Of a DNA stretch of 64,000 bases, positions 8,313 to 21,325 are shown piece after piece. Made by a program: the position numbers and the translations under genes. Source of the stretch: Longimicrobiales bacterium (lineage in GTDB: Bacteria; Gemmatimonadota; Gemmatimonadetes; Longimicrobiales; Gaopeijiaceae); contig CBDFMQ010000002.1 in NCBI GenBank assembly GCA_965249725.1, forward strand, positions 1,184,001-1,248,000. Direction: 5' to 3'. Within the stretch, counting starts at the first letter, position 1. The number at the start of each line of letters is the position of its first letter. Below the pieces are notes generated by a model. That model searched no databases, was not told the DNA's origin, and was given only the letters and a program-made list of their open reading frames with translations.

Positions 8313-9611
8313 ATGCTGTCCGTTCGTCATCAGCGTCGCGATTTCCTCAAATCGTTGGCGGCCTTGGCTCTCGCCGGGCCCGCCGTCTCACGTCTCGAAC
8401 TCGTCGAAGAGGCGTTCGGTGCCGAACTCGAGTACGTCGCTTCCGGCCCTCGTTCCGCTGCCACCTGGGAGGCACTCCGAGAGCGATACATGCTTGCCTC
8501 CGACGTCGTCTATCTGAATCACGCCTCGATCGGAACGATTCCGCGAGCAGTCCACGAGGCATGTGTCGAGTACATGCGCGTCTGCGAGGAAAACCCCTGG
8601 CTGTATATGTGGGGCGGCGCCTGGGAGGAGCCCCGCGAGGCCGTCCGCAACAAAGCCGCCGCCCTCCTCGGAGCCGATCCCGACACCGTCGCCATCACAC
8701 ACAACACCACGGAGGGCTTCAACGTCCTGGCCCAAGGCCTGCCGCTGGGCCCAGGTGACGAGGTACTCTACAGCTCCATGAATCACGATGGTGCCAGCGT
8801 CGCGTGGGACCACCACGCCTCCAGGAGAGGATACGCCGTCCGCCGCTTCGACTTTCCGGTGACGGACGTACCCAACCTCACCGTCGACCAGGTTGTCGAG
8901 ATCCATCGCCGCCAGATTCGTCCCGAGACCAGGGTGCTCGTCTTCCCCCATGTGGACAACATCGTGGGTCTCCGGCACCCCATGGCGGCCCTCACGGCGA
9001 TGGCCAGGGCGGAGGGCGTTGAGTTCGTTGCGGTGGACGGAGCGCAAACCGCCGGCATGATTCCCCTGGACCTCGAAGCGTCGGGAGTCGACGCCTACTC
9101 GACCAGTCCACACAAGTGGATCCAGTCTCCCAAGGGCCTGGGCCTTCTCTACGTGAGACGAGAGGCCCTCGAGGCGGTCCACCCGATGTGGGTCACATGG
9201 GGCCAACGCCGCTGGTCCGGGAGCGCACGAATGTTCGAGGACTACGGCACGCGCAACCTTGCCGAACTTCTGGCCATGGGTGATGGGCTCGACTTCCAGA
9301 ACAGCCTCGGATCCGAGCACAAGGAGACCCGATACCGGGAAATCCGGGAGGACCTGAAGGCCCGCGTTGAGGCCGACCCGTCCCTCTCCTGGCGTTCGCC
9401 CGAGAATTGGGAACTCGGCGGATCGCTCATCGGGATCGGCTTTGAATCGCCGGGGGCCAACGCGGTGTCGGTCGGCATGTACACCGATCGGGGCATCGTC
9501 CTCCGTCCCTTCCAGACCCAGGGCCTCAACGCCCTGCGGATCTCTCCCAACACGATCACATCTTCACAGGAGATCGAGGCCCTTTTCTCGGCTCTCGACG
9601 CTCGGAGCTGA
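8313..9611 (+). CDS. Class V PLP-dependent aminotransferase-fold enzyme (isopenicillin-N epimerase / cysteine lyase-like) with Tat signal
   Basis: RRDFLK twin-arginine motif; YLNHASIG, NTTEG, VDGAQ, SPHKW (PLP lysine). Confidence 0.85.
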   Translation: MLSVRHQRRDFLKSLAALALAGPAVSRLELVEEAFGAELEYVASGPRSAATWEALRERYMLASDVVYLNHASIGTIPRAVHEACVEYMRVCEENPWLYMWGGAWEEPREAVRNKAAALLGADPDTVAITHNTTEGFNVLAQGLPLGPGDEVLYSSMNHDGASVAWDHHASRRGYAVRRFDFPVTDVPNLTVDQVVEIHRRQIRPETRVLVFPHVDNIVGLRHPMAALTAMARAEGVEFVAVDGAQTAGMIPLDLEASGVDAYSTSPHKWIQSPKGLGLLYVRREALEAVHPMWVTWGQRRWSGSARMFEDYGTRNLAELLAMGDGLDFQNSLGSEHKETRYREIREDLKARVEADPSLSWRSPENWELGGSLIGIGFESPGANAVSVGMYTDRGIVLRPFQTQGLNALRISPNTITSSQEIEALFSALDARS

Positions 9612-9795: not shown

Positions 9796-11211
9796 GTGCG
9801 TAGGCTGATCGGAACGGCGTTGGTACTCGGCTTCGCCCTCACCTGGCGTCCCGAAGCGGTATCTGGACAGTATTCCTGGAGCAGCTTCTCCTTCTCCTTG
9901 GGGGTCGGCTTTGGAGTGGGGCTGTCCTACACGACCGTGGATCCATGGTACCAGCCTGCCTATGACGATCTCTGCTGGTCGTACACCTACTACGACTCGT
10001 ACTCGTACCCCTGCCGTCGCAGCTACTATGACGCGGGCTACTCCGACTACGGCTACGGCTATCACGACCACTATCACAGCCGCCGCTACATCAGTCTCTC
10101 ATATGGCTACATGCCTTGGCGCTTCTCCTATCCGGCCTATTGGGGCTACGGGTGGGGCGTCCCCTACTGGGGCGGCAGCACACGGTTGGCCTTCGGCAGC
10201 CTCTACGACTACAACTGGTTCGGCTACCGGAATCACCGGGGTGGGGTGAGCAGCGCGTATACCTACGGCGACTACGCCTACTACAACTATCGGGCACCGA
10301 ACACTTACGTGCCGCCTCGTTCGACCCAAGCAACCGGACGGTATGCCAGAGGAGGGGCCGTCAACGGTCTCGGCTACAAAGAGTCGCCACGGTCCACCTC
10401 TGCCACACGTGTGGCGACCAATCGTGGAGGAACCTCGAGTGCCGCCGCCGCCAACAGCGCCGCGCGGAGTGATGTCTCAGCGACCGTCGCCCGCTCCGCC
10501 CAGCGGAACGCCGCAGGTGGTCGAGCGGTCGCGCCCCGGACGCGTGCTTCCGCGGACCGAGCCGCCCCCAGCAGCGGGGCGAGGGCCGTACGGCCGACCG
10601 TGACGAGAGCTCGTCCTACGGACGCCGTGCGGGGTCGGACTGACGTACGCTCCGGAGTGGCCCGAACGCGAGCACCGGCAGCCCGCTCAGCGCCCTCGAG
10701 GAGCGCGACTCCTTCAGCGAGAACCGCACCGTCTACCCGTCGGTCCAACGCCGATCGGCCGTCGCCGAGCACGCGCTCGAACCTACGGCTCCGGGACCCG
10801 AGTTCCGCACGCGCGGCGCCTTCGAGGTCGAGCACGCGTTCGACGAGGCCCGATAGGGCTCGTCCGGTGCCCCGGGCGGCCCCGAGCCGTACCAGGAGTG
10901 CACCGTCCAGGTCCACCCGGAGGGCACCGTCGAAGCCTACACCGAGTCGGAGTTCGGCCAGGAGCGCCAGGCCACCTCGGACCTCTACTCGCGCGGCAAG
11001 GCCGAGCGTGAGTCCGCGCCGGAGTGCCGGCCGCGGAGCATCGGCCCGTAGCGCTCCTCGTTCATCGACGCGTAGCGCACCCCGGTCATCGGCCCGTAGC
11101 GGCCGTGGATCAGCCTCGATGCGTAGCGCACCCCGTTCGTCGGGTCGCAGCGCTCCCTCCCGGAGCCGCTCGGGTGGTTCCCGCTCAGGCGTGCGCCCCA
11201 GGGGGGGCTGA
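9796..11211 (+). CDS. Secreted low-complexity protein: Tyr/Gly-rich N-half, Arg/Ser/Ala/Pro-rich C-tail
   Basis: Strong RBS AAGGAGG, signal-peptide-like start, 471 aa ORF filling the gap between the PLP enzyme and hutI. Confidence 0.75.
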   Translation: MRRLIGTALVLGFALTWRPEAVSGQYSWSSFSFSLGVGFGVGLSYTTVDPWYQPAYDDLCWSYTYYDSYSYPCRRSYYDAGYSDYGYGYHDHYHSRRYISLSYGYMPWRFSYPAYWGYGWGVPYWGGSTRLAFGSLYDYNWFGYRNHRGGVSSAYTYGDYAYYNYRAPNTYVPPRSTQATGRYARGGAVNGLGYKESPRSTSATRVATNRGGTSSAAAANSAARSDVSATVARSAQRNAAGGRAVAPRTRASADRAAPSSGARAVRPTVTRARPTDAVRGRTDVRSGVARTRAPAARSAPSRSATPSARTAPSTRRSNADRPSPSTRSNLRLRDPSSARAAPSRSSTRSTRPDRARPVPRAAPSRTRSAPSRSTRRAPSKPTPSRSSARSARPPRTSTRAARPSVSPRRSAGRGASARSAPRSSTRSAPRSSARSGRGSASMRSAPRSSGRSAPSRSRSGGSRSGVRPRGG

Positions 11212-11220
11212 CCGGAGCAG

Positions 11221-12447
11221 TTACGCTCCTACCACGACGCCGTCTTGGACCACTGATCGGCACGGGTTGACGCCGATCCAGTAGGCCAGTTCGCGTGGGT
11301 GATTCACGTCCCATAGGGCCAGATCGGCCCGTTTCCCCGACTCGAGCGTACCCACTTCGGTCCCCAGACCCAGGGCCAGCGCGGCGTTCCTCGTCACCCC
11401 TGCGAGCGCCTCTTCCGGAGTCAGACGGAAGAGTGTGCAGCCCATGTTCAGGATCGTAAGGAGCGAGAGGATCGGTGACGAGCCCGGGTTGGCGTCGGTC
11501 GCCAGGGCCATGGGTACGCCGGCGTTCCTGAACGCATCTACCGGAGGCCTATGCGTTTCGCTCAGGTAGTAGAACGCTCCGGGAAGCAGGACTGCGACGG
11601 TCCCCGCGGCCGCCATCGCGCTCACCCCGTCTTCGGACGTGTACTCGAGGTGGTCGGCGGAGAGGGCCGAGAAGCTGGCGGCGAGCGCGGCACCTCCCGT
11701 ATCCGAAAGCTGATCCGCGTGCAGCCGGACGGGCAGGCCCATGCTCGTTGCGGCATGAAAGAACGTCGTGCACTCCTCAGGTGTGAAGGCGATGCCTTCG
11801 CAGAAGGCATCGACAGCGTCGACCAGCCCCTCCTCTACCGCCGCCGGAAGAAGCTCGTCCACGACCATCGAAACAAACTCGCCTCGTCGGCCGTCGAACT
11901 CGGGCGGAAGCGCATGGAGAGCGAGCAGCGTGGTCCGCACGGTCACGGGAAGGCTCTCGCCCAGGCTCCGCGCGGCCCGCAGCATCGTCAACTCGGTGGT
12001 CACGTCCATGCCGTACCCGGACTTGATCTCCAGGGTGGTGACGCCCTGCCGCAGGAGTCGGCCGACGCGTCCTGCCGCGGCAAACTCCAGTTCGCCAGGA
12101 GAGGCCTCCCGCGTGTCACGTACGGTGGACCGGATCCCTCCACCCGCCTGAGCGATCTCGGCGTACGTAGCACCCTGCAGGCGCGCCTCGAACTCATCCG
12201 CCCTGTCCCCTCCGAACACCAGGTGTGTGTGGCAATCGATGAGACCTGGAGTAATCCAGGCACCGCCGACGTCGTGCACCTGTGTGTCCGGGCCGATATC
12301 GCCATCTGGGACGTCCGACCTGGACCCCACCCAGTCGAGCCGTCCTCCGGTGACGGCCACGGCACCGTCGGCTACCTCTCCAAAAGCGGCTCCCCCACCT
12401 TGCATGGTGGCGAGGTGGGCATTGAGCCAAACGCTGTCGAAAGCCAA
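11221..12447 (-). CDS. hutI: Imidazolonepropionase
   Basis: [44 protein letters not shown]. Confidence 0.95.
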
Positions 12448-12502: not shown

Positions 12503-14344
12503 TCAACCCTCGAGTGCCGCCTCTACGTACCCTTCCACCTCTCGCACCGCCTCGTCGGCACCCTGAAGGAGTCCATCCAGCTTTCCCCGAACCTCCTGGT
12601 CGAACACTTCATCTGAGATGTTCGGGAGGTTGATGCGCACGTTGTAGATGGCCGACTTGAGGCCCGCATGAGCCATGAGCGCTCCGGAACCGACGTCGCT
12701 GATCATCTCTGGCGTGGCCATGGCGGCCATCTCCTTGCAGAGGGTCATCGCTTCCAAGCAACCCTCTGCGGTCCCGAGGGGAACGAGCGTCGCCGTCTTG
12801 TATCCCTCTTGAATCGCCTCTGAACGAGCGACCCGCTCCTCTTCGGTATCTCTCGGCATACGCATGCCCGTGAGGACAGAATCGAACGCCTGCGTGTCCT
12901 CGTCCACCATGCGCACGAGTCGGTCCTTCACCGCCTGCGCCCGCTCTGCGATCGAGCAGAGCTGCTCGTAGCGATCGTCGAATTCGCCCTTCCCGACGGA
13001 CAGGTTCACCACCATGGACGCCAAGGCCCCACCGAGGGCTCCTGCCAACGCGGCTACCGATCCACCACCCGGCGCGGGCGTCTCCCGGGAGACCTCGTCG
13101 ATGAAGTCGTAGGTGGGCCGTAGCACCAACGGTCCCTCGACGGTGGGCATCGCAAGCACCTTCTCCCGCACGTCGAACTGCGCGACATCCCTTAGCCCCA
13201 TGGACTGGATCGCCGTCTCCAGAAGGTCGGGTACCGGGATTCCCGTCGACTTCATGGCCCGGCGCCGATAGAAGACACCGGCCTGCCTCAAGGCCTCGAA
13301 GGGGATGAGGCCCACCAGTTCCGAGCCGGTAATGACGACGCCCCGCTTGCGAGCCTCTTCCCGAGCGGCCTCGAGAACCTCATGGGGCGGACTGACATTG
13401 AAGTTCGTGAAGTTGATGCTGATTTGTGCTCGGTCGTACTCGTCGATCACCCATCCGATCGCCTTCACATCGGTGAAAAGACCATCGTCGAAAACGGGTC
13501 CGGTCGGAGCCTCCGGATCGACGTCGAGGGCCTGATACCGCGCCCGAAGATCACCTCCGTGCACTTCCTTATAGTGCTTCTCAAGCCCCTCGAAGGTCTC
13601 GCCCACGAAGTCGCACGGCCCGCACGGATAGGTGCCGTCCTCGGCGAAGCGAACAACCTCACCTTTGTAGTAGAAGGGTTCGGTGTTGCCCACCCGCTTC
13701 CAACGCCCCCTCTCCCGGATTGCATATGCGATGTCGTTGGCATAGCGCCGGTCGGTGGAGTTGAGGTTGATGTTGTACGCGATCAAGAACTCCCGGGCAC
13801 CCACACAGGTGGCCCCGGCGCTCGGATTCAGATCCTGCGGCCCGAAATCCGGGTGCCAGTCGGGATCCTTGAGCTTCTCGGCCATCCCTTCGTACTCGCC
13901 GGCTCGCACCTGGGCCAGGTTCCGCCGTTCGGGGCGGCTCGCCGCGTGTTCGTAAAGGAAGATCGGAATGTCCAGCTCGGCCCCGATCCGCTCTCCGACT
14001 CGTTGGGCCATGGCCACACATTCGTCCATGGTCACACCGGACACCGGCACGAAGGGGACGACGTCTGTGGCACCCATCCGGGGATGCTCACCCTGATGCT
14101 CCCGCATGTCGATGAGTTGGGCCGCGCGGGCGACGCACTGAAAGGCGGCCTCCTCCACCGCTTCGGGAGGGCCGACGAACGTGACCACCGTCCTGTTCGT
14201 ATTGGCCCCCGGATCGACGTCGAGAAGGCGTACGCCCGCTACCGCTTCAGCGGCGTTGGTGATTTCCTTCAGGACAGCGGGATTTCGCCCCTCGGAGAAG
14301 TTGGGAACACACTCGACGATCCGTTGAGACATCTGTTGAGACAT
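12503..14344 (-). CDS. ftcd: Bifunctional glutamate formimidoyltransferase / formimidoyl-THF cyclodeaminase
   Basis: [30 protein letters not shown]-terminal cyclodeaminase [12 protein letters not shown] and NVRINL. Confidence 0.93.
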
Positions 14345-14350
14345 CTAGGG

Positions 14351-16036
14351 TCAGCCCTCACGCATTGGAAGACGAAGTCCTTCTCGGTCGGCGGTTTCGA
14401 CCGCCTTCTCGTATCCCGCGTCGGCATGTCGTACCACACCGATCCCGGGATCGTTGGTCAGCACGCGGCGAATGCGCTCGGACATCTGGGGTGAGCCGTC
14501 GGCTACGAGGACCTGGCCCGCATGAAGCGAATTGCCGATGCCCACTCCCCCCCCGTGATGGAACGACACCCAGCTCGCACCCGACGCCGTGTTCAGCAGG
14601 GCGTTCAGTATAGGCCAATCGGCGACCGCATCGCTGCCATCGAGCATGGCCTCGGTCTCGCGATAGGGAGAGGCCACCGATCCCGTATCCAGATGGTCGC
14701 GCCCGATCACGATGGGTGCCGAGATCTCACCGCTGCCGACAAGCTCGTTCATCGCCACGCCGAATCGAGCCCGCTCACCCTGCCCAAGCCAACAGATCCT
14801 GGCCGGCAATCCCTGGAAGTGGACCTTCTCACGCGCCATACCGATCCAGCGTATCAGATGCTCGTCATCGGGGAACATCTCGAGAACCAAATCGTCGGTC
14901 CGGTGAATGTCGGCGGGATCTCCGGAGAGTGCGACCCACCGGAACGGTCCCTTACCCTCACAGAACAGGGGCCGGACGTACGCCGGCACGAAGCCCGGAA
15001 AGGCGAAAGCGTCTGCGAAACCAGCGTCCAGAGCCTGGGTCCGAAGGTTGTTGCCGTAGTCCGTCGTGTGGGCACCCGCCCGCATGAGTGCCACCATTGC
15101 CTCACAGTGGACACGCATCGACTCCATGGACCGGCGTACGTAGTCGTCCGGATCGGCCGTACGTAGCGCCTCGGCCTCGGCCAACGAGAGGCCTGCCGGG
15201 ACATAGCCGTTCAGCGGGTCGTGGGCGGACGTCTGATCAGTGAGCAGATCGGGTACGATGCCGCGTGCCGCGATCTCGGGGATCACCTCCGCGCAGTTGC
15301 CCACCAGACCGACGCTGAGGGCCTCACCCCGGTCGGCAGCACCACGGGTCCATTCGAGCGCCTCGTCGAGATCATCGGTCATCCGGTCGCAGTATCCCGT
15401 GTCGAGTCGGCGCTGAATTCGGGTGGGATCCACCTCGACGACCAGGATCGCGCCGCCGTTCATCGTCGCGGCAAGCGGCTGCGCGCCACCCATTCCCCCC
15501 ATCCCTCCGGTGAGCACCCAGCGACCCTTCAGGCTCGAGCCGAAGTGCTGTTGTGCCATGGCCCCGAAGGTCTCGTACGTCCCCTGCAGAATGCCCTGGC
15601 TTCCGATGTAGATCCACGAGCCGGCCGTCATCTGGCCGTACATCATGAGGCCTTTCTGCTCGAGCTCGTTGAAGTGGTCCCAGTTGGCCCAACGACCCAC
15701 GAGGTTGGAGTTGGCGAGGAGCACTCGGGGGGCATCGGTATGGGTGGTGAAGACGCCGACCGGCTTGCCGGACTGAACGAGCAGGGTCTCGTCGTCCTCC
15801 AGCTCCCTAAGGGTCGCCACGATTCGATCGAACGCTTCCCAACTCCGGGCGGCCCGACCGGTTCCACCGTAGACGACCAGATCCTCGGGGCGTTCGGCAA
15901 CGTCCGGATCGAGGTTGTTCATCAGCATCCGGAGTGCCGCTTCCTGCGTCCATCCCTTGCAGGAAAGATCATTGCCGCGAGGGGCGCGGATGGTCCGCGC
16001 TCCGACGGTAGTGCTCAAAGCTGAATCCTCCCTCAC
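14351..16036 (-). CDS. hutU: Urocanate hydratase
   Basis: [53 protein letters not shown]. Start may be TTG 16018 (GGAGG upstream). Confidence 0.97.
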
Positions 16037-17538
16037 TCGCCCAGAGCGGCGAGTGCTCCTGTCCGTATCAGATCTCGCACGGCCGTGAAGTCGCCCGAGA
16101 GGCTGCGGTCGCCCTCTAGGCGGTCGACGTGCTCGCGAATCAACGAGTGGGCCTCCTCTACCCCGTCGCCGGCCTTGAGTGGCCGGTGGTATTCGACGGC
16201 CTCGGCCGCCGCCGTCAGCTCGATGGCGAGGACGTACTCGAAACAGTCCGCGACCCGTCGCGCCTTGCGTGCGGCGGTCAGGCCCATGGAAACATGGTCT
16301 TCCTGGTTGGCGCTCGTGGGCACCGAATCGACGCTCGCAGGATGGCAGAGCACCCGCATCTCGGCGAGCAGATCAACCGCCGTGACCTGAGCGATCATTA
16401 AGCCGGACTCGAGCCCGGGCTGCCGCGCCAAGAACGCGGGCAAGCCGGAAAGATCGGGATTGAGCAGACGTTCGATGCGCCGCTCGCTGATCGCCGCCAG
16501 GTCCGTGACGGCCATGCAGAGCAGATCGAGCGCCTGGGAGACGACCTGTGCATGGAAGTTGCCTGCGCTCACCACGGCTCGGGTTTCCGGAAAGACGAGC
16601 GGGTTGTCCGTCGTGCTATTGGCCTCCGTGGTCAGCACCTGCCGGACGTAGCCGAGCGCGTCCCGAGCCGCCCCGTGTACCTGCGGCATGCATCGCAAAC
16701 AGTATGCGTCCTGGACCCTCGGGTCCCCATGCCGGTGCGACTCCCGAATTTCGGAGTTGGCCAAGAGCCCCCGAAGCCGACGGGCCGACTCGATCTGACC
16801 GGGATGGGGCCGGGCTTCCTGTACCTCCGCAAGGAACGCGTCGGGCGTGCCCTCGAGTGCCTCCAGGCTCAAACAGCCCGCCGTCTCGGCGGTGTCGAGC
16901 GCCCGCTGCGCCGAGAGCAGGGCGAGGATCCCGAGACCCGTGGTGGCCTGGGTGCCGTTGATGAGGGCCAGCCCTTCCTTCTCTCGCAGCTCGAGGGCCT
17001 CCATTCCAAGCTCGGCGAATACCTCGGCCGCGTCTCGAAGCTGGCCTCCGTGCTCGACGCGACCCTCACCGATCAGCCCGAGGGCGATGTGCGCCAACGG
17101 AGAAAGATCCCCACTGGCGCCCACGGATCCGACTCGCGGCACGACGGGGTGTACCCCGTGATTCAGGAAGTCCAGCAAACGGTCGATCACCTCTTCGCGA
17201 CAACCCGAATTCCCGCGGGCGAGAGCGTTCGCCCGGAGGATCATGATCGCCCGCACCTCTTCGGTGGCCATCGGCGTATCCACGCCGGAAGCGTGACTGC
17301 GCACCAGGTTTCGTTGAAGGTCACCCTGCTGATCGGAAGAGATGACGACCTCCGCGAGGCGGCCGAATCCAGTGGTGACGCCGTAGATGCGCTCCCCACT
17401 CTTCAGGAGCTCCTCGATGAAGGCTCGAGCGCGCCGCACGCCGGGGCGAGCCGCCTCCGCCAGAGAGACAGGCACCCGGTCCACCGCGGCCAACTCGAGA
17501 GCCTCCAACGAAAGGTCGTGACCCGTGAGCTCGATCAT
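16033..17538 (-). CDS. hutH: Histidine ammonia-lyase
   Basis: [11 protein letters not shown]-forming [43 protein letters not shown]. Confidence 0.96.
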
Positions 17539-18137
17539 TCAGCGACCCTTCTTCGTCGTTCCTCGAATTCGACCTTGGTGAGCGTGAAGGGACCTCGACT
17601 CCAATCGGTCTCCAACTCCACGCCCAGACCGTCGGCCAGTCGGTTCACGTAGTTGTAGTAGCACGTCACCTGGCAGATATCGAGAATCGCCGCGTCTCCG
17701 AAGCCGACGTCGCGGAGTCGCTGGACGTCCCCCTCGTCTACTTGCCAGGGTGCCAGGGTCAGCTTCACCGCATAGTCGAGCATCGCCCGATCCGCGGCGC
17801 CGAGATCGGCCTCCCGATAATCGCGCGCAAGCGCCTTCGACAGTTCGGGGTCCTCGGTGAGCGTACGGAGTCCCGCCCCGTGATGGTTGATTCAATAGAA
17901 ACAGTCGTTCGCCGACGAAACGGTCACCGCGATCATCTCCCGCTGCACACGACTCAACGGAGATTGCCCTCGCATGAGGTGCGCGTAGAGGCGCACGTGG
18001 TGCTCCATGGAGGGAGGGTTCTGGGAGTGGATCCGGATGATGTTGTCGACGCGCATCTCCGATCCCCCGTATCGCTGATAGAGCTCGGCGAGGGGTCCCT
18101 CCGCGTCTTCGTACGGAACGTATGGGATGTGGGCCAA
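17535..18137 (-). CDS. AhpD-like / CMD-family peroxidase-related selenoprotein (Sec at in-frame TGA 17892-17894), 200 aa
   Basis: ORFs 17892..18137 and 17535..17783 are in the same frame, separated by one TGA. Read-through gives ...VSSANDCFY-U-INHHGAGLRTLTEDPELSKALARDYREADLGAADRAMLDYAVKLT..., with U at the second Cys position of the AhpD CxxC motif. Confidence 0.85.
17865..17894 (-). promoter_or_regulatory. Putative bacterial SECIS element
   Basis: mRNA UGA-AUCAACCAUC-ACGGGG-CGGGA-CUCCGU: 6-bp stem (one G-U) with a G-rich apical loop starting 16 nt after the UGA. Confidence 0.65.
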
Positions 18138-18840: not shown

Positions 18841-20601
18841 ATGAGCAGTGAAATCCGCTTTGGCACGTTTGTCCGCGTGGCAACCATTCGGCATGACATC
18901 ATTAGCTTCAATGATCTGGTCAGGACGTACCCCGCCGAGACTCGGGGCAGGATCAAGCTGCGCCCCCTCGATGCCTACCGCCTCCTCGCCCCGTATCTCT
19001 ACAACCGCGTGTTCGAGCAGGCCCGGGCCGTCATTCCGCTGGCGCTGTATCTGCTCCTATTCCAGGTGTTCATACTCCGGCAGGAAGTCGCAGGTGCGGC
19101 GATACTCACCGCCGGGCTGTTCGCCGTCATCGTCGGCCTCATGCTGTTCATGGAGGGACTCAAGGTCGGCTTGATGCCCTTTGGCGAGACAATAGGCCAT
19201 ACCCTACCTGTACATTCGCCCTTGCCAGTGGTGTTGCTGATCGTCTTTCTCCTGGGTATCGGAGTGACTTTCGCCGAACCCGCCATCGGCGCTCTGAAGG
19301 CCGCCGGGCAATTCGTCGACGTCGCTACCGCCCCATATCTGTACGCGCTGCTCAACCAATGGTCCGGGGTATTGGTGTTGGTTGTCGGCATCGGGGTCGG
19401 TCTCGCTGCCCTTATCGGAACGCTGAGGTTTCTGTACGGCTGGAGTCTCAAGACCTTGGTATACATCACCCTACTACCTCTGCTCGCTCTGACTCTCTAC
19501 GCGTCACAGGACCCCAATCTCGCACCCATACTGGGCCTGGCCTGGGACGCTGGAGCAGTGACCACCGGGCCGGTAACCGTGCCGCTGGTGCTGGCGCTCG
19601 GTGTCGGCATCGCGGGCGCCGCAGGCCGTGGTGACTCTTCACTTGCCGGCTTCGGAATAGTTACGCTCGCCTCGCTCTTCCCGGTAATCGCCGTCCAGGG
19701 ACTGGCGCTGTTCGTAACTTACCAGCAGTCCCCAGAAATGATTATCGAGGCCGCACGGACGCTTTCCCAGAGCACTTCAGGCAACCGGCTGACGCAGTCA
19801 CCCGGCGCTGAAATTGTCGCCGGAATCCGCTCCATCGTACCACTCGTCGTCTTCTTGCTGTTCGTGCTGATGGTTCTCTTGAAACACAAACTGCCGCGGC
19901 CATGGATCACCGCCTATGGCATCACCCTTTGTGTTCTTGGCATGGTCGTCTTCAATCTCGGCCTGACCTACGGGCTGTCGGTGCTGGGCTCGCAAGCCGG
20001 GAGCCTCGTACCCGCAGCCTTTTCGCCGCTGGAAAGCGTCGCCAGTTCACCACTGTATTCCGTGGCCGCCGGACTGGTTATCGCGGTCAGCTTCGCCTGG
20101 GTTCTGGGGTTCGGTGCGACCCTCGCCGAACCGGCGCTGAATGCACTTGGCCTGACCGTCGACAACCTGACCAACGGCTCCTTCCGCAAATCGACGTTGA
20201 TGTACGCCGTTTCTTTTGGCGTGGGCTGCGGTATCGCCCTCGGTGTATCCAGAATCATTTACGACTTGCCACTGGTATGGCTGGTCGTCCCAGGATACAC
20301 GATCGCCATCGTCTTGACGTGGCTTTCAACCGAAGAATTCGTCAATATCGCGTGGGACAGTGCTGGGGTGACAACCGGTCCAGTCACGGTGCCGCTCGTT
20401 CTGGCGATGGGGCTCGGCTTCGGCGAGGCCGTTGGAGCCGGGGACGGATTTGGCATCCTCGCGATGGCCTCCATTGGTCCCATACTGTCCGTGATGTGCA
20501 TAGGCCTGTGGATCAACTGGAAGATCGGGCGTAAACACGTCACAGACGAGCAACGAGGGCTCGCCGGTGGCCGAACGGAGAACCGGGGTATGGTCGCATG
20601 A
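18841..20601 (+). CDS. Tandem DUF1538 integral membrane protein
   Basis: Two copies of the signature pair (TF/TL)AEPA(I/L) and WD(A/S)(G/A)xVTTGPVTVPLVLA(L/M)G. Confidence 0.88.
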   Translation: MSSEIRFGTFVRVATIRHDIISFNDLVRTYPAETRGRIKLRPLDAYRLLAPYLYNRVFEQARAVIPLALYLLLFQVFILRQEVAGAAILTAGLFAVIVGLMLFMEGLKVGLMPFGETIGHTLPVHSPLPVVLLIVFLLGIGVTFAEPAIGALKAAGQFVDVATAPYLYALLNQWSGVLVLVVGIGVGLAALIGTLRFLYGWSLKTLVYITLLPLLALTLYASQDPNLAPILGLAWDAGAVTTGPVTVPLVLALGVGIAGAAGRGDSSLAGFGIVTLASLFPVIAVQGLALFVTYQQSPEMIIEAARTLSQSTSGNRLTQSPGAEIVAGIRSIVPLVVFLLFVLMVLLKHKLPRPWITAYGITLCVLGMVVFNLGLTYGLSVLGSQAGSLVPAAFSPLESVASSPLYSVAAGLVIAVSFAWVLGFGATLAEPALNALGLTVDNLTNGSFRKSTLMYAVSFGVGCGIALGVSRIIYDLPLVWLVVPGYTIAIVLTWLSTEEFVNIAWDSAGVTTGPVTVPLVLAMGLGFGEAVGAGDGFGILAMASIGPILSVMCIGLWINWKIGRKHVTDEQRGLAGGRTENRGMVA

Positions 20602-20975
20602 CACAACGGGGAATCACGGTACTGACCGAAGCATCGGTGATCACGTGCATCGTGCAGCGAGGGCTCGCAGACAAGATCGTGAAGGCCGCCCAGGATGCAG
20701 GCGCGCAGGGAGCGACTGTTAACTACGCCCAGGGCGTCGGTGTGCGTGAGCGGCTGGGCATCATGGGTCTGGCCATCGAAGTCGACAAGGAAGTCATCAC
20801 CATCATCGTCGCCAATGACCAGGCCGACCGGGTGTTTGAAGCCATGTACCTGGCAGGCAACCTCGATACGCCGGGCATGGGCATCATGACGCTCGCTGCG
20901 CTCGAGAAGATCGCCACCTACGTCCCCCTCGAACTGGTGGAACGGCTGGCGGAAAAGACTGACCCAGACACATGA
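20598..20975 (+). CDS. P-II-like signal transduction protein
   Basis: ITCIVQRG...AGAQGATVNYAQGVG...KEVI...PGMGIM; ATGA overlap with the DUF1538 gene. Confidence 0.85.
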   Translation: MTQRGITVLTEASVITCIVQRGLADKIVKAAQDAGAQGATVNYAQGVGVRERLGIMGLAIEVDKEVITIIVANDQADRVFEAMYLAGNLDTPGMGIMTLAALEKIATYVPLELVERLAEKTDPDT

Positions 20976-21325
20976 GGACGGTCGCGGACCAGAAGCTCAT
21001 CACCTGCATCGTACCGCACGGGCGGGCGCTGCCGGTGCTCATGGCGCTAAAGGAAGAACTCGGAATCGTGAGCACCACCATCCATCACGCCCGTGGGACC
21101 GGGCGTATGACTCCTCTGGCGTGGCGCGGCGTCGGTGAGGCAGCTGAGAAGGATGTCTTGACGGCCGTTGTGCCTGCTTCACGCGCAGCAGAGGTCTTTG
21201 GCTTCATATACGAACGTGGCAAGATCAGCGAGCCTCACGGCGGGATTCTTTATCAACGACGACTGGCTGCGAGCAGTGAGTTCCACCTCCCAGACTTGCC
21301 CGATGAGGGCACATCGGAGGGTTGA
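20972..21325 (+). CDS. Second P-II-like protein
   Basis: KLITCIVPHG...HARGTG...EKDVL...HGGIL; ATGA overlap with the first P-II gene. Confidence 0.8.
   Translation: MRTVADQKLITCIVPHGRALPVLMALKEELGIVSTTIHHARGTGRMTPLAWRGVGEAAEKDVLTAVVPASRAAEVFGFIYERGKISEPHGGILYQRRLAASSEFHLPDLPDEGTSEG

Follow-up and report, generated by a model that had tools for sequence, protein, structure and literature searches.

The hut operon and its formiminotransferase-cyclodeaminase

The window, a stretch of 64,000 nucleotides from a Longimicrobiales bacterium, carries an operon on the reverse strand in which the genes follow in the order AhpD-like protein, hutH, hutU, formiminotransferase-cyclodeaminase (FTCD) and hutI:

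17535–18137, reverse strand: AhpD/CMD-like protein (TIGR01926 over cut-off), in which read-through of the in-frame TGA, codon 82, would give a C-x-x-U motif
16033–17538, reverse strand: hutH, histidine ammonia-lyase-type aromatic amino acid lyase (Pfam Lyase_aromatic; named hutH from its position in the operon)
14351–16036, reverse strand: hutU, urocanase (Pfam)
12503–14344, reverse strand: bifunctional FTCD, host of the insert (613 aa; Pfam FTCD_N, FTCD and FTCD_C over cut-off)
14084–14086, reverse strand: His87 of FTCD, aligned with the proposed catalytic His82 of pig formiminotransferase
11221–12447, reverse strand: hutI, imidazolonepropionase-like amidohydrolase (Pfam Amidohydro_1, weak HUTI_composite)

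FTCD exceeds the curated cut-offs for PF07837, PF02971 and PF04961 and scores 362 bits against the TIGR02024 FtcD model (cut-off 221); its structure match is rat FTCD (1tt9). His82 has been proposed as the catalytic residue of pig formiminotransferase (PMC12622545), and the corresponding His87 is invariant in the alignment (87/87 sequences). Judged by the family model and the catalytic histidine, the ORF at 12503–14344 is a member of the FtcD family. It shares the catalytic histidine and the order FT-N, FT-C, CD with mammalian FTCD (1tt9, 1qd1) and bacterial FtcD (TIGR02024), and is 38–39% identical to the mammalian structures in structure alignment. The first-pass annotation had seen no hutC nearby, and the family model search extends this to the whole genome, in which no hutC, hutG or hutF was found over cut-off.

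Forward-strand genes lie on both sides of the operon. Divergent from it, a DUF1538 membrane protein is followed by two P-II-like small proteins (18841–21325). On the other side lie a 471-aa ORF without a Pfam match (9796–11211), whose start is signal-like, whose middle is rich in Tyr and Gly and whose long tail is rich in Arg, Ser and Ala, and a class-V aminotransferase with a weak twin-arginine signal match (8313–9611), relatives of which occur in 7 of 80 loci that carry the insert described below.

An insert with a C2H2-type motif

The alignment of FTCD to rat FTCD (1tt9) and to the pig FT domain (1qd1) is interrupted between residues 216 and 288, at a site between the first helix and the second strand of the FT C-subdomain. 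The parts of the module are as follows:

13484–13696, reverse strand: insert in the C-terminal subdomain of the formiminotransferase domain, 71 residues (217–287), a gap relative to rat and pig FTCD
13646–13705, reverse strand: N-terminal stalk, residues 214–233, basic and aromatic, the best-conserved part of the module
13559–13630, reverse strand: C2H2-type finger, residues 239–262, with putative Zn ligands C241, C244, H257 and H262
13475–13555, reverse strand: second helix and return strand, residues 264–290 (predicted helix 266–272)

The loop, described at first as much shorter in other FTCDs, is so in the mammalian chains, which skip only three residues where this FTCD has 71. In 1qd1, 319 residues are modelled in chain A and 325 in chain B, and the residues missing from chain A are presumably those of the loop at the insert site.

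The finger had been recognized from its spacing, with a leucine three residues before the first histidine, and the peptide at residues 239–262 reads exactly so: C241-x2-C244-x12-H257-x4-H262, with L254 in the expected place and F246, F251, L254 and Y258 as framework residues. An aromatic residue at position +2 after the second cysteine rather than at +4 occurs in known C2H2 fingers, and this one has F246 at +2 and Gly248 at +4, a position held by Gly or Ala in most members. The typical C2H2 consensus has a hydrophobic residue at +4 (PMC10216425). The loose pattern C-x2-C-x12-H-x3,5-H alone is not rare in the genome, where it occurs six times in 19,647 stop-to-stop frames versus one to ten times in ten shuffles. 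A strict pattern to which the aromatic residue and the leucine were added, composed with the FTCD motif already in view, occurs once, in this FTCD, and in none of the ten shuffles. Shuffling of the FTCD protein itself never produced even the loose pattern (0/20,000), and the motif in FTCD is beyond chance.

Sequence profiles of the finger resemble eukaryotic finger families, although for this FTCD all scores fall under the cut-offs. Its best Pfam C2H2 match reaches 21.8 bits (gathering cut-off 27), and zf_C2H2_ZHX is matched by 67 of 74 members at E ≤ 1 (best 7.4e-6). Neither Pfam nor NCBIfam has a model covering the insert. A description of it was not found in literature on formiminotransferase or FTCD insertions and on zinc fingers in bacterial metabolic enzymes, covered through titles and abstract openings and for few subscription papers; as far as searched, the insert is undescribed. 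Base composition gives no reason to propose a recent foreign origin, which was rejected: GC is 0.62 in the insert versus 0.63 in the rest of the gene, and GC3 is 0.73 versus 0.78.

Predicted structure and relation to known fingers

A full-length AlphaFold2 model built on an 87-sequence alignment has a mean pLDDT of 90, with the insert at 74–92 by blocks of ten residues. It places short strands at 239–240 and 247–248 and helices at 251–262 and 266–272. Folded alone (pLDDT 74), the insert is predicted to form strands 17–19, short strands and the same two helices. The insert is thus predicted to contain a beta-beta-alpha finger of the classical C2H2 type and a second helix. Local superpositions of the model on solved fingers suggest that the four ligands may meet around one metal.

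At E 0.001 Foldseek found nothing for the insert model; its 41 weak rows are mostly C2H2 fingers, several of which fit locally at 0.6–1.4 A over 22–30 residues with E above 1. VIA-align over 48,161 chains returned five at Z of at least 2, all zinc fingers (AFV1p06, Kaiso, ZFAT, Ros87 and ADR1; best 2.5). The insert as a whole matches no solved fold (best Z 3.1), and the model is too small (pLDDT 74) for this to indicate difference or novelty. A viral origin was considered and rejected, as a Foldseek search of viral models yielded C2H2 rows only, none of them significant.

With classical eukaryotic C2H2 fingers (the ADR1, ZFY, ZHX, ZNF462 and REST types) and the archaeal-virus protein AFV1p06, the FTCD finger shares spacing, the leucine before the first histidine and the predicted hairpin and helix. 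It differs in being single, acidic, embedded in an enzyme, carried on a stalk and followed by a second conserved helix, and further in the Gly at the usual aromatic position, in profile scores under curated cut-offs and in the replacement of its ligands in one branch.

Classical C2H2 fingers are reported to be very rare in bacteria, at 0.003% of genes (PMC3541406). A C2H2-type finger inside a central folate enzyme of several uncultured lineages, missed by family libraries, is of interest in that setting. The Ros/MucR regulator is the bacterial example that has been studied in detail. Ros87 (2jsp) and Ml4/Ml5 resemble the FTCD module in having a bacterial C2H2 site within a larger domain that includes a second helix, and Ml4/Ml5 are natural members without metal (PMC9779718), a parallel to the presumably metal-free FTCD branch described below. 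Ros has 9 residues between the second cysteine and the first histidine (C82, H92; PMC9779718), whereas the FTCD finger has 12, and Ros is a DNA-binding regulator rather than an insert in an enzyme. The Ros/MucR finger is a globular domain of three strands and two helices, and overlap of 2jsp with the insert model is weak (51 residues, Z 2.1, 3.5 A). PF05443 (ROS_MUCR) is not among the 25 families listed of the 31 matched by 74 members, nor among the 6 listed for this FTCD, and the family was not found in 31 sampled genomes of the phylum. Membership in Ros/MucR was rejected on the C-x2-C-x9-H spacing there.

Distribution of the insert

Homologues were sought with residues 208–298, a query that includes some core residues, which retrieved 730 clusters from 876 candidates. 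In species-representative genomes, a scan picked up 265 matching stretches; all of the 80 kept, which were chosen for likeness to the query, have C, C, H, H. By record or source names, the insert-bearing taxa include Gemmatimonadota, Longimicrobiales, Acidobacteriota, one Zixibacteria and KSB1. Insert length is nearly constant across members, and the distribution is patchy: 401 genomes of the phylum yielded 13 strong matches, and 10 of 61 relatives have the insert. The counts for these 61 include two unpublished genomes (G037 and G056), both outside the family, on which none of the conclusions depends. Urocanase is present in all 10 insert-bearing genomes among the 61, and each of the 10 gave one FTCD match. 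In most of the remaining relatives the FT is shorter, and its loop at the insert site is small or missing. Since insert-bearing relatives have one FTCD match each and most of the others a shorter FT, the sequences suggest that one enzyme type may have been displaced by another. The loci L013–L030 document that most relatives have a shorter, divergent FT-like protein (41–48% identity over the N-terminal part, no cyclodeaminase match), which is also found in some genomes without a urocanase match.

Shorter arms, about 10 and 19 residues longer than in rat, occur at the same site in other FTCDs (L011, L012 and L240), and one genome (G458) has both an insert-bearing FTCD and one with an intermediate arm. 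These three sequences suggest that the arm may have grown stepwise and taken up the finger at its tip.

The module was observed as a whole only inside FTCD in the genome itself, the 50% representatives and the shorter proteins searched. A profile HMM search of a 1.84-billion-protein collection (50% representatives) gave 8 single-stretch matches among the best 150, all of them FTCD fragments; matches among shorter proteins carry FTCD domains in 7 of 7 cases, and the ESM Atlas returned FTCD clusters only, at scores under 0.9. A stand-alone or mobile domain was accordingly rejected for these collections. Multi-finger array proteins in the 1.84-billion-protein search match only the finger positions of the profile.

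A branch that keeps the module and replaces the ligands

The four ligands are intact in the best 120 of the 730 homologue clusters (120/120), so conservation of the ligands, proposed earlier as a check on the finger, holds among close homologues. It fails farther out. With the most divergent insert as query, a further search returned 59 matches, and the 52 new ones comprise 30 C-C-H-H, 21 ligand-less and 1 C-D-H-H; the 21 have a D-S form with the module kept. At the four ligand positions the ligand-less proteins have D, S, F/Y/H and Y, mostly Phe or Tyr and then Tyr for the two histidines. Two of them are named Lysobacterales and Xanthomonadales by source. A metagenome scan for this form found 238 stretches, and the 80 kept all lack both cysteines (80/80), which is partly due to the construction of the search pattern. 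The 305 pooled full-length sequences, redundant and with an effective number of 43, divide into 226 C-C-H-H, 78 D-S-x-x and 1 C-D-H-H, and module length is unchanged in D-S-x-x. Partial states (D-S-H-H, D-S-H-Y and C-D-H-H) were also seen.

When a tree is computed from 53 sequences after removal of the insert, the 20 ligand-less rows fall into a single branch (bootstrap 91, SH-aLRT 96). Only 16% of bootstrap trees unite the 30 ligand-bearing rows, but the base is unresolved and two distant sequences serve as outgroup. A quick tree nests the ligand-less branch with support 94. Because of the tree and the leftover histidine in some ligand-less members, loss of the ligands is the favored direction of change, though not a proven one. 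Only one core position separates the two states across the 305 sequences, so there is no sign of compensating change. Metal ligands appear to be dispensable in one branch in which the module is kept.

The surroundings of the ligand-less genes (L125–L204) include pil genes, ketol-acid reductoisomerase with a LysR regulator, an M1 peptidase and DUF938; no hut or AhpD-like genes were found near FTCD in the loci examined. Ordinary side chains apparently stand in for a C2H2 site in this branch, the second such case in nature after Ml4/Ml5.

The AhpD-like selenoprotein and the proposal of a switch

A thiol-reducing selenoprotein had been suspected in the operon, and the suspicion has gained ground. 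The gene is a credible selenoprotein gene, read through its TGA, because the genome carries tRNA-Sec and SelB and most close orthologues keep one in-frame TGA. Folding of the SECIS region is no better than that of shuffles (z 0.11) and lends the gene no further support. A second TGA-bearing paralogue lies at G000:C3:1296013-1296558.

From this gene and the cysteines of the finger, it could be proposed that in ligand-bearing members the finger tunes FTCD activity as a zinc or thiol-redox switch, which the AhpD-like selenoprotein might reset, and that the ligand-less branch is constitutive. Strict ligand conservation in one large group would fit such a switch, as would the selenoprotein gene in the same operon, the lack of a hutC over cut-off in the genome and the local C-G-P-C, which equals the thioredoxin motif and lies in a finger whose profile weakly matches thioredoxins. 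However, Pro243 is conserved in only 62% of ligand-bearing sequences, and both histidines are kept with the cysteine pair, as in a metal site; with a finger as the predicted fold, the thioredoxin site was rejected as a look-alike. The selenoprotein also does not co-occur with the insert. It was found near 7 of the 80 insert loci, many of which are truncated by contig ends, each time with hutU, and near 0 of the 80 ligand-less loci. In genomes of the family it is present in 6 of 10 with the insert versus 19 of 27 without, counts in which kin are non-independent and genomes incomplete. In six genomes without an insert-bearing FTCD (G009, G013, G016, G024, G026 and G029) it stands beside hutU. 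On these counts the functional link suggested between insert and selenoprotein was rejected, and from its gene context the selenoprotein looks tied to the histidase and urocanase genes, TGA-bearing orthologues standing beside hutU in several family genomes, and it tracks hutU rather than the insert. A switch of this kind is improbable. As a function shared by the whole subfamily, the Zn/redox sensing first proposed is not supported, as an entire insert-bearing branch has replaced both cysteines and usually both histidines. The refutation named in the first-pass annotation, ligands not conserved among insert-bearing orthologs, thus holds in part.

Conservation, charge and the role of the module

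Weighted column identity over the 305 sequences is highest in the stalk (residues 214–233, 0.86), followed by FT_N (0.81), the rest of FT_C (0.77), the finger and residues 264–290 (0.73 each) and the cyclodeaminase domain (0.72). In the stalk 65% of columns are at least 95% conserved, above every catalytic region, in a set of proteins whose identity goes down to 58%. Residues kept in both states are R214, W215, K216, R217, G219, P223, F224, Y225, Y226, K227, G228 and F233 in the stalk, and G242, F251, L254, Y258, D265, L266, R269, Y270 and the return strand from the finger onward. Positions of at least 95% weighted identity within 264–290 are D265, L266, R269, Y270, D276, G282, P283, V284, D287 and G288. 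A reading of the module as a surface elaboration that the enzyme tolerates, required to do nothing more than leave stability intact, could draw on the wide variation of loop length at this site among FT proteins. It is hard to reconcile with a stalk conserved beyond any catalytic region and with a nearly fixed insert length, and is the least probable of the readings considered.

The finger is acidic. Its net charge in this FTCD is -3 (insert -8), the mean being -3.1 over 70 sequences with the ligands and -4.1 over 16 without, and the mean insert charge is -4 to -5 in both states. Under the numbering by which we take finger helix positions to correspond to the base-reading positions of classical fingers, the commonest residues at the DNA-reading positions are Ser/Glu/Glu/Glu, and Glu or Asp is commonest at positions 252, 253 and 256. 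These features bear on the suggestion that the module binds DNA or RNA, the enzyme moonlighting as a hut regulator in place of HutC. Fold and weak sequence likeness to the DNA-binding fingers ADR1, CTCF, Kaiso and AFV1p06 speak for it, together with the lack of a hutC over cut-off, the basic stalk and an oligomer that could display several fingers. Ligand loss alone is not decisive against it, as zinc-less Ros proteins still bind DNA (PMC9779718). DNA-binding C2H2 transcription factors, however, have tandem fingers and a basic or polar base-reading helix, whereas here there is one finger with an acidic helix and, in both states, a negative net charge, and hutU is within reach in just 8 of the 80 insert loci and 0 of the 80 ligand-less loci. 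The nucleic-acid-binding appendage of the first-pass annotation is therefore very unlikely. More generally, because of the ligand-less branch, the acidic finger and a stalk conserved above the finger, neither Zn/redox sensing nor DNA binding is a likely function.

The module could instead dock another protein, such as an enzyme of the Hut or folate sets or a scaffold, its zinc being structural as in the single finger of PRMT3. The surface-type aromatics W215, F224, Y225, Y226 and Y270 are strongly conserved, and Foldseek ranks the PRMT3 finger 1wir first for the insert model (E 1.1). That finger is a single C2H2 on an enzyme, acts through protein structure and contact and is required to bind the partner uS5 (PMC10216425). 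The parallel is an analogy only: PRMT3 is eukaryotic, its finger is N-terminal, and the structural likeness is a non-significant row (rmsd 12.7 A) that fell below Z 2 on realignment, for which identity as a PRMT3-type finger was rejected. No gene travels with the insert, either; the commonest true neighbors are present at roughly one locus in four and are not the same from group to group. Docking to a partner is unlikely, though less so than the other rivals.

We give a modest preference to a structural-zinc surface module with a role inside the enzyme. The insert would be a conserved add-on of one bacterial FTCD subfamily, in which a single structural zinc, probably bound by the predicted finger, would aid folding of the module. 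In the ligand-less branch, polar and aromatic side chains would take the place of the metal site, Phe or Tyr at the histidine positions filling the finger core. Structural zinc has been lost and function kept in Ros/MucR fingers (PMC9779718). Selection would act mainly on the stalk and the second helix, the basic and aromatic stalk serving the enzyme itself. The module may brace the oligomer near the formiminotransferase site, and its Arg/Lys cluster (R210, R212, R214, K216, R217 and K227) may help hold the folate polyglutamate tail during transfer to the cyclodeaminase site. The latter role is suggested by the basic cluster and by mammalian FTCD, in which channelling is polyglutamate-dependent. 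The gene neighbors of both insert-bearing and ligand-less FTCD vary freely, in keeping with a function within the enzyme. Among the points against parts of this proposal, strict ligand retention in 226 of the 305 sequences also fits a zinc-dependent role in that group, and the module is not needed for catalysis in general, since most FT and FTCD proteins have a short loop. No new pathway or regulatory system is indicated.

Under a bolder reading, which we hold to be distinctly unlikely, a eukaryote-type finger separate from Ros/MucR would have been grafted onto the tip of the FTCD arm, where a zinc-dependent switch or clamp would control how one-carbon units are released from histidine, and the gammaproteobacterial branch would have turned it into a metal-free fold. 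If so, nature would provide a matched pair, a zinc-dependent and a zinc-independent version of one enzyme. The two states in any case allow a direct test of the roles of metal and module in an enzyme known for channelling.
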